A stretch of 64,000 nucleotides of DNA, taken from positions 1 to 64,000 of the IMG/VR virus record IMGVR_UViG_3300047160_014545. One strand, given 5' to 3'. How positions within the stretch are numbered: the stretch's first letter is position 1; every line of letters begins with the position of its first letter. The DNA comes from a virus. Its lineage: Duplodnaviria; Caudoviricetes. The translations under genes were made by a program, and so were the position numbers. The notes beneath the pieces were generated by a model. It was not told where the DNA came from. It was given only the letters and a program-made list of their open reading frames with translations, and did not search any database. Positions 2,910 to 41,861 of the stretch are shown piece after piece.

Positions 2910-4052
2910 TTATTTGATGTCGATGTCTTCTACTGTCACGGTGCCCGGTGGATCCGGAACTTTCTCGCCTGGAGGGAGAGGCGTTTTGAGATCCGTCGGC
3001 GTAGGTCCGCCAGTCGTCGAAGGATCGAGCGCCAGGAGGACCATGTTGGTGTACCACGGATTGCCACGGCTATCACCTTCATGCTCAACCACAAGCACCC
3101 GATAGAAACCATCATTCGTGACGTCCGCGAAACGCGTCAAATTCGTATAACCCGGGAATGTCGTCGAATTCGGATTTGGCCCCGAGCTCTCCGCTCCCTG
3201 CTGGATGGTCTGGTTGATGTCTTTATTATTAATCTGAACCTGGTCATAAACTTTGACCACCGGATTGAGCAAAGAGCGTACCATGATGCCTTGATCGGTC
3301 GCCTCCGGCACTCCGATCATTCCGGTGCGAGAATTGAGTTGGATCGCAGTACCCTTGGCTACGCCGTTATTGGGTATGATTTTTAGCTTGCCGTCCTCGA
3401 TGAGCCAGCCAACGCTGTTATTGTTGGCAAAATCCCGCATCCGCCCGACAAACATGCCGTAGAGCACCTTGCCACGAGGCAGAATACCACCCGTGCCGGA
3501 GGCCTCACCTGGCGAAGCTTTGAGCGTCTGCTCGCCCTTCTCGATGCCATAGGCGGCGATCGCACCATTGACGACATCGACTTGCTGCTGCGTTGTTGCC
3601 GGCCCTTCTATGGTTTTGTTCACGATCGCGTAAAGGTGCGCGAGGTCGCCATCTGCGGCAAATATGTCAAGATAGCTATCAATGTTGTTCTCTCGCCCGC
3701 GGCGGAACTGCTTGATTGTACCATCGAAAATTATGGCAAATCTTCCCGTTTTATAGCCGGCCGAAAGAGTGACCCGAGAATATTCCTGAATGACTCGCTT
3801 TCGGGTTTGTTCTGAGAGATTGTAAACCCGAATGGTGGCAGTCTTGGGTGTCGAGGCGCCATCAGCCGCGCGGATGTAGAATGTGAACCGGAGTCGCGAA
3901 AGGTCTTCGCCTTGCGAACTAGCGCCTATATCCGACGAAAAATCAGTAGCACTACCAGCTGACACTACCAGCGAAGCCCGGCGCAGCCATAGATCGGTCG
4001 TGTAGGAAGTCTGATAGGAAGCCGCCCCAACCCCAAGCCGGGAGTCGCTCAT
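2910..4052 (-). CDS. Baseplate hub protein
   Basis: LRFTF.I...TPKTATIRVYNLS...V.L.AGY....IIF.G.I.Q..RGRE...YLDI.AADGD...GMIG.PE.T..GI.V.SLLNP...G.YRVL...H.GDSRG..WY; directly after the tape measure gene. Confidence 0.8.
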   Translation of the reverse strand: MSDSRLGVGAASYQTSYTTDLWLRRASLVVSAGSATDFSSDIGASSQGEDLSRLRFTFYIRAADGASTPKTATIRVYNLSEQTRKRVIQEYSRVTLSAGYKTGRFAIIFDGTIKQFRRGRENNIDSYLDIFAADGDLAHLYAIVNKTIEGPATTQQQVDVVNGAIAAYGIEKGEQTLKASPGEASGTGGILPRGKVLYGMFVGRMRDFANNNSVGWLIEDGKLKIIPNNGVAKGTAIQLNSRTGMIGVPEATDQGIMVRSLLNPVVKVYDQVQINNKDINQTIQQGAESSGPNPNSTTFPGYTNLTRFADVTNDGFYRVLVVEHEGDSRGNPWYTNMVLLALDPSTTGGPTPTDLKTPLPPGEKVPDPPGTVTVEDIDIK

Positions 4053-40288: not shown

Positions 40289-40332
40289 CCCACTACCCCT
40301 TAGAAGATAATTTCGGGATCGTGAGCAAGCCT

Positions 40333-40359
40333 TGTCAAGATTTTTGGAAGGATGTCAAG
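40333..40359. promoter_or_regulatory. Tandem TGTCAAG motif with 20-bp period upstream of terS
   Basis: TGTCAAG at 40333 and 40353; the same geometry recurs at 59030/59050. Confidence 0.35.
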
Positions 40360-40420
40360 ATATTTTTACGCTTTCTACCCCGGAATGTGCGAACAGCGCG
40401 GGCCGTCACAAAATACGGTG

Positions 40421-40445
40421 GTTAACAAAGGTTAAGATATGTTAA
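40421..40445. promoter_or_regulatory. Three phased GTTAA half-sites (10-bp period)
   Basis: gttaacaaag gttaagatat gttaa in the intergenic region. Confidence 0.4.
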
Positions 40446-40489
40446 TGTGCATCGCGTAGCTCCCACCGGGAGAAGGAGCAACGAGGGGG

Positions 40490-40594
40490 ATGCAGCTAAC
40501 AATTTGGGAGACAATTCGGCTCACCACGTTTAGCGGATTGATATCCGCAGCGATATGGGCTGGGATAATTTGGCTGATTATCACAACCTTATGA
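40490..40594 (+). CDS. 34-aa membrane micro-protein MQLTIWETIRLTTFSGLISAAIWAGIIWLIITTL
   Basis: GAGGGGG directly before the ATG; C-terminal hydrophobic helix of about 20 aa; not in the ORF track. Confidence 0.55.
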   Translation: MQLTIWETIRLTTFSGLISAAIWAGIIWLIITTL

Positions 40595-40815
40595 ACAGAG
40601 CGATCCTGGCGAGCATATATCCCCCCACAGGAGGATATCCTGTCAATATTGCCAGGTCACGAGCGTAACGCCGCTGATCGCGCTGCACAGCAGGCTTCCC
40701 ACCTGGACAATCCGGGTCGAATGGGGAAAGGGTGGCAGATCGTCGCCGCAAAGAGATCGCTCTACAAGCCAGCTGGTGATCGGACCCCCGATTAGGAATG
40801 CGTCCAGAAAAATGT

Positions 40816-41550
40816 TCATCTCTCGGCTGCCCGGCGTTTGCGCACGCCCACAGCGTAGCTGCCTATCTGTCGCTTCGCATCCTGGGATGGCTCGACAACG
40901 GTTCGCTCATAAACCTCCCATGCTGCCGCCGGCATCTCGTCGAGCGTGGCGATGCTTGCAACGACCGAGCAGGCCGAGCGCGGGAGCGGCATTACCGTCA
41001 GTAGTGGGTGGAAAGCCGGGAACCGGATCGGCGTATCGGTCGCGATCAGCCGAATGTTGATAAACAGCGGCCCGCACCAGGTGTCCGTCTCTACCAGGCC
41101 CTCATAAGCCTGGAAAGAACCAGAATGGGCTATATTCGGCGGCATCCGAATCAGCGTGTTCCAGCCAGGTGCGGTCTTGATTATACAGCCGGACCAAATC
41201 TGAATGATGCCGGGCGCACCTAATCGAGTGAGCCAAGGCGGACAATAAGCTCGGCAATCAGGCAAGGCCAGTTCCTCGAACACCGAGAGCGCACCCGGAT
41301 ATTGGATGGCATCCCGCAGCGGATACCATCCATCGTCGTTATCGAATGCCCACCAGATATCGTGACCGTCCCACTGCAGCTGAAATCCGACCGGCGGGTA
41401 GACGTAATAGCCCAGAGCGCTGGCCGACGTGAGAGCCTCGCAGTAGCGATGCCCCCGCGTCGGCAGCTCCCCCCGAGCCGACCGGTCACCCCGCTCAGGC
41501 GGTTTGCCGCCTAAGACTTGCCATAGAGAGAGGATCGGCTCGGCTGACAT
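40816..41550 (-). CDS. DUF6065-like protein
   Basis: RYCEA.TSASA.GYYVYPP..F.L.WDG...IQIWSG....TAPGW..LIR.P.N......Q.YEG.VETD.W.GPLF.N.RL..TD.P..F. Confidence 0.68.
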   Translation of the reverse strand: MSAEPILSLWQVLGGKPPERGDRSARGELPTRGHRYCEALTSASALGYYVYPPVGFQLQWDGHDIWWAFDNDDGWYPLRDAIQYPGALSVFEELALPDCRAYCPPWLTRLGAPGIIQIWSGCIIKTAPGWNTLIRMPPNIAHSGSFQAYEGLVETDTWCGPLFINIRLIATDTPIRFPAFHPLLTVMPLPRSACSVVASIATLDEMPAAAWEVYERTVVEPSQDAKRQIGSYAVGVRKRRAAER

Positions 41551-41643
41551 TTACTTGCTCTGCGCTGGAGCTTGTCCGCCGCCTACACGGACGCGGCCGG
41601 GATCGCGGGTCGATGTCGGTGCGGTCGGGTGCTTCGTCGTCAT
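41551..41643 (-). CDS. 30-aa peptide MTTKHPTAPTSTRDPGRVRVGGGQAPAQSK, candidate RiPP-like precursor
   Basis: GAAAGGT SD; its TAA abuts the DUF6065-like ATG; D.G.VR.GGG motif. A longer TTG start at 41802 is in frame. Confidence 0.6.
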   Translation of the reverse strand: MTTKHPTAPTSTRDPGRVRVGGGQAPAQSK

Positions 41644-41861
41644 GATCATATACCTTTCGTTGAGAAAGGTCCGAGCCGAACCCGTCAGCAGCCGACAAGT
41701 TTGTGCCGTGAACAAAGTGGCCCGTGGTCCAGTTGTCACCTTGCCGGCATCGAGCAGATCGGCCCGAACCGAGCGAAGGAATACAGTGGTCGGCGTCAGC
41801 AACTCGTCCCGATTAGCGTGAATGACTGTGAAAAAATCGGGAATAATATGTCAGCGCGCCG

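Follow-up and report, generated by a model that had tools for sequence, protein, structure and literature searches.

A viral record of 81,624 b, IMGVR_UViG_3300047160_014545, carries on its minus strand a short ORF that is joined stop to start to a gene of the DUF6065 family. The stretch analysed, referred to here as the window, comprises the first 64,000 nucleotides of this record, which is classified as a virus and is 100% complete by CheckV, so that the phage carriage assumed in a first-pass annotation of the sequence was borne out. All genes of the cassette region are encoded on the minus strand, and its features are the following:

40643..40819, minus strand: 58-aa ORF, overlapping the DUF6065 stop codon as ATGA, with two hydrophobic segments.

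40816..41550, minus strand: DUF6065 gene, 244 aa, which keeps the R-Y-C-E cysteine loop and has a predicted dUTPase-like fold.

41548..41553, minus strand: TAAATG stop-start junction of the short ORF and the DUF6065 gene (TAA 41553..41551, ATG at 41550).

41551..41643, minus strand: short ORF of 30 codons plus TAA, encoding a single-unit precursor-like peptide that aligns with the 30-35-aa single-unit peptides upstream of other DUF6065 genes.

41581..41610, minus strand: core TRDPGRVRVG, with the same ten residues (last V or I) in the related loci L171 and L172.

41644..41802, minus strand: upstream in-frame extension, which would give an 83-aa form from TTG 41802 and contains the segment DAGKVTTG (41751..41728).

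41652..41670, minus strand: hairpin with a 7-bp stem and a 5-nt loop, whose 3' arm contains the SD sequence GAAAGG (dG -8.1 kcal/mol).

Both ORFs and the TAA/ATG junction are thus present as first described, and the 83-aa in-frame extension was likewise found to contain the second, similar segment that had been pointed out in it. An alternative ATG at 41649 would lengthen the short ORF to 32 aa, compared with 30 aa from ATG 41643; the SD sequence (41658..41653) lies 9 nt before ATG 41643 and 3 nt before ATG 41649, a spacing that favours the former as the probable start. The predicted product is composed of a 12-aa N-terminal part rich in Ser, Thr and Pro, the conserved core and a short basic tail, a layout that would fit the leader and core arrangement of a RiPP precursor, and no signal peptide was seen on inspection by eye. 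GC by codon position was uninformative for the short ORF and its extension, both of which are too short, and PADLOC and NCBIfam searches returned no match.

The 58-aa ORF has its hydrophobic segments at residues 1-19 and 34-57 according to hydropathy, and its GC by codon position is coding-like. No homologue of it was detected in 89 DUF6065 loci and no match in Pfam, PHROG or PADLOC; it may encode a small membrane protein belonging to the module. Of the minimal two-gene module originally proposed, the pair of peptide and DUF6065 genes stands, and this overlapping ORF makes a third gene possible. Between the cassette and the putative small terminase gene there is a gap of about 355 nt (40289-40642) with no listed minus-strand ORF longer than 56 aa and a GC of about 0.50-0.52, below that of its surroundings; this gap could harbour a late promoter or the packaging site.

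The hairpin around the SD sequence was also recovered, its arms (41670..41664 and 41658..41652) pairing within the predicted fold. The local fold z-score at this position is -0.76, the 64-kb window contains 63 perfect 7-bp hairpins, and L172 has no equivalent; on these grounds the hairpin was rejected as a conserved regulator. Since it is not conserved, and since the placement of the peptide by AlphaFold2 (see below) failed, translational control of the cassette is just a guess. Promoter and terminator scans gave no signal above shuffled sequences, and Rfam returned sub-threshold chance matches only.

The window protein matches PF19541 (DUF6065) with 47.2 bits (cut-off 26.6, E 2.6e-12), a match that recurred in a search at the genome level, and retains 25 of the 25 invariant columns of a 120-sequence alignment. 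The invariant residues include one Cys, located in the R-Y-C-E loop, two Glu, an Arg and two Asn; no His is invariant, and the family also conserves an E-G-x-x-E-x-D stretch. The lack of an invariant His as partner for the Cys makes a classical cysteine peptidase improbable. In an AlphaFold2 model built with 119 homologues the enzyme part reached a pLDDT of 84.6. In VIA-align the first 22 structural matches of this model, at Z 5.8-10, belong without exception to dUTPases and dCTP deaminases, another fold appears only at Z 4.3, and Foldseek agrees; these matches (Z up to 10.0, rmsd of about 3 A over 111-125 residues) correspond to a beta-clip fold. The earlier suspicion that DUF6065 is dUTPase-like is thus supported for the modelled structure, and the protein contains a G-I-I-E-T-D-x-W-x-G stretch which we take to resemble dUTPase motif III. 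A Pfam search of the window protein matched nothing but DUF6065 at E up to 1, hence no dUTPase (PF00692), and a profile search of PDB sequences had no match at E up to 10. The complex of peptide and enzyme was modelled with AlphaFold2 as a read-through fusion in which TAA was read as Q (P0121); the peptide had a pLDDT of about 50, so that docking was uninformative and the prediction supported no binding mode.

DUF6065 comprises at least 1258 clusters at 50% identity and occurs in at least 585 species genomes among those scanned; among 14 model genomes, that of Caulobacter vibrioides alone scored above the PF19541 cut-off, which would make this species tractable for genetic work on the family. 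Culturable carriers among the loci include Elioraea tepidiphila DSM 17972 (L035) and Acidisphaera sp. S103 (L075). In clusters of the ESM Atlas, DUF6065 is joined to JmjC/Cupin_8 domains and, in viruses, to 2OG-Fe(II) oxygenase domains. A word search for fused forms yielded none, and the fusions found are those of the Atlas clusters and one with DUF6817. This last protein, P0239 (452 aa), joins an HD-like domain (DUF6817, weak HD_4) to DUF6065, is a single representative and may be either a genuine fusion or the result of two genes called as one. Neither 'DUF6065' nor 'PF19541' is named in any paper of the searchable literature, where no function is described. The sole literature trace found is by Iyer et al. 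(2010; PMC2938197), who remark that the peptide-modifying dioxygenase cluster of phage Syn9 also encodes a protein with a dUTPase fold and a conserved cysteine.

The surroundings of DUF6065 genes were compared in 80 genomic and 9 IMG/VR loci (89 in total; protein identity 40-49%), 83 of which have enough upstream sequence for testing. In 78 of these 83 loci (94%), DUF6065 is preceded on its own strand by a peptide gene built on a [KR]-[VI]-x-hydrophobic-G unit; the other five (L001, L010, L014, L048, L061) showed none, and loci missed by the unit profile have variants of the same unit. The number of units per gene ranges from 1 to 41, the largest product having about 700 aa. When the regions upstream of the homologues were scanned for small ORFs, the strict motif D.G.VR.GG occurred 27 times, on the coding strand every time. 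It had been suggested at first pass that peptides with this motif recur next to DUF6065 genes; the recurrence holds, and the strict motif is just one variant of a broader unit. The generalised pattern D.G[KR][VI].[LFMIV]G[GAD] gave 151 matches in 43 loci, all upstream, and the unit profile hundreds, all of them upstream and on the coding strand, whereas the motif was absent from six-frame controls of about 1.3 Mb (658 kb from the rest of the loci and 646 kb of unrelated phage loci). In the six frames of the window the generalised motif has exactly one match, the short ORF, compared with a mean of 0.13 in shuffled windows.

Between the repeat units of the same gene in the relatives, 334 synonymous and 37 non-synonymous codon differences were counted, which argues that these genes are translated and that selection acts on the peptides. 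The peptide classes agree with the clades of the enzyme, with 21 label changes on the enzyme tree as against 52.7 for shuffled labels, and this agreement may be due in part to shared ancestry. The window enzyme sits on a very long branch of the tree (1.74). Giant precursor genes occur in L080, L015, L050, L053 and L009, with 41, 35, 28, 27 and 24 tandem 17-aa units of the DAGKVRLGG type, respectively; the carriers are Rhodopila-like and other Alphaproteobacteria, and the genes lie upstream of position 4001 in each locus. As judged from these comparisons and from those of the closest relatives, the short ORF of the window belongs to a conserved family of peptide genes located directly upstream of DUF6065, its core being under purifying selection.

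The two enzymes most similar to that of the window (50-51% identical) are those of L171 and L172, both on short metagenome contigs, and in both a small ORF with the core TRDPGRVR[VI]G precedes DUF6065. Of the ten core codons, three are identical between the window and these relatives, six differ only synonymously and one accounts for the V/I exchange, whereas the flanks have diverged almost completely. The peptide stop directly adjoins the enzyme ATG in the window (0 nt), and gaps of 8 and 5 nt separate the two in L171 and L172, respectively; in the window the stop lies 12 nt before the first conserved residue of the enzyme, compared with about 80-250 nt in other subfamilies. The L172 peptide ORF (40 aa) follows immediately on a stop codon, is served by a strong GGAGGA SD sequence and has a leader as long as that of the 30-aa form of the window. 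A second, intact unit is present upstream in the same frame in L171, and a remnant unit ended by a stop codon in L172; in the light of both, the DAGKVTTG segment of the window is best read as what is probably a decayed first unit.

Some further observations were made on these contigs. The public gene call of L172 (70 aa, 68-280) is in the wrong frame, overlapping the conserved 40-aa ORF (240-362), which is in another frame; this ORF is called correctly on other contigs (P0271, 12 contigs). Variation among L172-type contigs was left unused, as the differences were too few and one copy was frameshifted. Downstream of DUF6065 in L171 (912-1684) there are two overlapping small genes and an AAA_25 ATPase; to judge by its gene content, the setting of L171 is compact and mobile-element-like, unlike the phage context of the window. 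Searches for additional close relatives gave little: DNA-pattern scans for the core returned chance matches only, save for the L172 contig already known, exact peptide patterns found no close relatives in metagenome contigs, and tblastn of the window protein against 50,697 phage records detected no homologue.

The peptide-DUF6065 pair is the only constant among the loci compared, and the other neighbours vary, including receiver-domain proteins, EamA exporters, TldD/PmbA peptidases and ABC binding proteins. Receiver-domain proteins (clusters 6 and 13) adjoin the pair in about 26 of the 89 loci. In L300, the cassette nearest to that of the window, the peptide and DUF6065 genes are followed directly downstream by an EamA exporter. 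In 8 loci (L009 718-2175 and seven more) the strand of DUF6065 also carries, about 2 kb upstream, a TldD/PmbA metallopeptidase gene, a candidate for a releasing protease. In three IMG/VR loci (L082, L085, L086) a YeiH-family membrane gene (PF03601), the peptide gene and DUF6065 are followed by a convergent receiver-domain gene and a large terminase. The terminase of these contigs was not accepted as proof of phage carriage, given the bacterial YeiH-family gene directly upstream; their TerL proteins have no BLAST similarity to TerL of the window. By their gene content, most IMG/VR DUF6065 loci look like prophage or GTA borders, not true cargo.

Downstream of the window cassette, on the same strand, lie a putative small terminase, TerL and the portal, the last two adjacent to each other; the small terminase had no Pfam match and was assigned by its position directly before TerL. 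A search for an integrase found none, and no receiver-domain gene is present in this phage. The base composition of the cassette is that of its surroundings. When 80 phage loci encoding a related TerL (43-66% identity) were examined, 54 of them with at least 1.5 kb of upstream sequence, none had DUF6065 or the motif, which argues that the cassette, located just upstream of the terminase genes, is accessory cargo in this phage. Four soil metagenome runs contain low-depth pieces that are identical to the window and show no variants, and no RNA data carrying them are listed. The host is probably a Gram-negative Alphaproteobacterium.

Since the pairing recurs beside almost every related gene examined, the two genes very probably constitute a real, undescribed module, presumably one of peptide maturation. 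That the short ORF encodes a ribosomal precursor peptide and DUF6065 the protein that matures it is rather probable, and a RiPP-like reading of the pair is no more than plausible. In the proposed mechanism both genes would be carried on one mRNA, and ribosomes ending at TAA would restart at the adjacent ATG, by which the level of the enzyme would not exceed that of the peptide. DUF6065 would bind the extended core in a cleft that corresponds to the nucleotide site of dUTPases; the G-I-I-E-T-D-like strand would line this cleft along with the invariant Arg and Asn, and the invariant Cys of the flexible R-Y-C-E loop would be catalytic, together with acidic residues. The peptide would be covalently changed at or next to the invariant Gly, either by a modification or by a cut releasing the individual units. 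The product, be it a short peptide or a small molecule derived from one, would act outside the cell; in bacteria it would be exported (compare the EamA exporter of the closest cassette), and in the phage it could be released at lysis with no exporter, which would explain why the phage version is cut down to peptide and enzyme.

The sequence evidence consistent with maturation consists of the Pfam membership, the invariant residues, the linkage, the selection on unit and core, the agreement of classes with clades and the 0-8-nt coupling in the three closest cassettes. The EamA exporter of L300, TldD/PmbA in 8 loci, the oxygenase fusions and the remark of Iyer et al. (2010; PMC2938197) were counted as further support; the unplaced peptide in AlphaFold2, the lack of an invariant His, the five loci with no peptide gene and the long branch of the enzyme (1.74) were counted against it. 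Given the dUTPase-like fold and the one HD-like fusion, the ligand could still be a nucleotide.

A rather unlikely alternative is that the peptide is itself a signal or ligand and that DUF6065 serves as a binding protein, chaperone, immunity factor or simple releasing peptidase with no modification involved; in its phage version, the unmodified peptide would mimic a host peptide signal or be used for phage-to-phage communication. The receiver-domain proteins beside about 26 of 89 pairs speak for it, as does a protein with no invariant His and no recognisable cofactor site in its sequence, but the phage of the window has no receiver-domain gene, the set of 25 invariant residues, with Cys, two Glu, Arg and Asn among them, suggests catalysis and not mere binding, DUF6065 is elsewhere fused to oxygenase domains, and exporters of the EamA type are better suited to small molecules than to free peptides. 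The stop-start coupling, with gaps of 0-8 nt in the three closest cassettes, and the SD sequence inside a hairpin could also be those of a regulatory leader (uORF or arrest peptide) that tunes DUF6065 translation and whose peptide has no role as a product; conserved amino-acid cores are typical of arrest peptides. This is very improbable: relatives with up to 41 tandem units and about 700 aa under purifying selection are unlike a leader, the peptide stop lies about 80-250 nt before the first conserved residue of the enzyme at most loci, L172 has no hairpin and L300 has a linked exporter.

If anything a little less probable still is that DUF6065 is a stand-alone protein of nucleotide metabolism from the dUTPase/dCTP-deaminase superfamily and the peptide gene an unrelated neighbour. 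The 22 best structural matches (Z 5.8-10), the stretch assumed to resemble dUTPase motif III and the one fusion to the HD-like DUF6817 would agree with such a role. Against it, Pfam found no dUTPase at E up to 1, the PDB profile search had no match at E up to 10, a dUTPase is only about half as large, and the peptide gene, present at 94% of the loci that could be tested, tracks the enzyme clades. Barely credible is a short ORF that is a chance open frame or a decayed remnant, functionless in the phage. It has only 30 codons, a length at which codon-position GC is uninformative, its upstream unit is clearly decayed and the enzyme is on a long branch; nevertheless, the window has one match to the motif where 0.13 would be expected, the ten core residues recur unchanged in L171 with synonymous differences only, a proper SD sequence and ATG are in place, and the enzyme retains every invariant residue.

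For the maturation module, the nearest parallel is provided by multi-core RiPP cassettes, exemplified by cyanobactin PatE with PatA/PatG. They share with DUF6065 loci a small precursor gene directly upstream of the maturation gene, conserved repeated units in variable number, an apparent leader-core layout in the single-unit forms and, sometimes, a linked exporter; they differ in that the DUF6065 partner is dUTPase-like and up to 41 units occur per gene. As no Pfam domain beyond DUF6065 was matched, the partner has no known recognition, protease, cyclase or YcaO/radical-SAM domain. No described RiPP enzyme is known to have a dUTPase-like fold, and a literature search likewise found no paper on one. 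Judged from gene order and predicted fold, the cassette is one that would work like a multi-core RiPP cassette, outside every described RiPP class because the fold of its partner matches no RiPP enzyme known. With trimeric dUTPases and dCTP deaminases (PF00692 superfamily) DUF6065 shares the beta-clip fold, these proteins being common in phages; in contrast to them it has 244 aa instead of about 130-170, no match at the sequence level, a near-obligate peptide-gene neighbour and, in addition, a conserved N-terminal R-Y-C-E loop and C-terminal helices.

Similarities with other phage and peptide systems are more partial. The phage Syn9 protein is, by its published description, also phage-borne, with a dUTPase fold, a conserved Cys and a context of peptide modification, and it sits among ten dioxygenases and halogenases, whereas the window cassette has no oxygenase (PMC2938197). 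The pantocin A cluster paaPABC likewise combines a tiny precursor gene, one or few enzymes and an exporter of the small-molecule type, and if the likeness holds, few residues of the peptide would end in the product, as in pathways of that type; DUF6065 cassettes differ from it by their unrelated enzymes and tandem-unit precursors. Phage arbitrium (AimP/AimR) shares a phage-encoded short peptide that possibly acts outside the cell. Unlike arbitrium phages, the phage of the window has no identified receptor gene, no signal peptide (by eye) and no integrase, it possesses a dedicated enzyme-like partner, and its host is probably a Gram-negative Alphaproteobacterium.

A bolder extension of the maturation module, decidedly unlikely as it stands, is that a lytic soil phage makes, by means of a single dUTPase-fold enzyme, a molecule of the type that its hosts make and sense, and releases it at lysis to imitate or jam a host peptide signal or to signal to other phages. 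Alphaproteobacterial hosts would in that case use multi-unit precursors and sense the product through the linked regulators. If true, this would be the first maturase-dependent peptide signal on a phage of Gram-negative bacteria and a new class of RiPP enzyme.

For DUF6065, a protein family with no described function, the near-obligate pairing with a peptide gene provides a concrete, testable substrate and, in view of the modelled structure, may point to peptide-maturation chemistry on a nucleotide-hydrolase fold. The phage copy consists of one 30-aa peptide and one 244-aa protein with no exporter or regulator, and is therefore convenient for co-expression and mass spectrometry. What the window adds to the family is a complete phage carrier, the smallest version of the module, a stop-start-coupled subfamily and a ten-residue core that has remained fixed across 50% enzyme divergence. 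Such modules travel on soil phages, and one may ask how a virus would profit from a peptide product of the host type.
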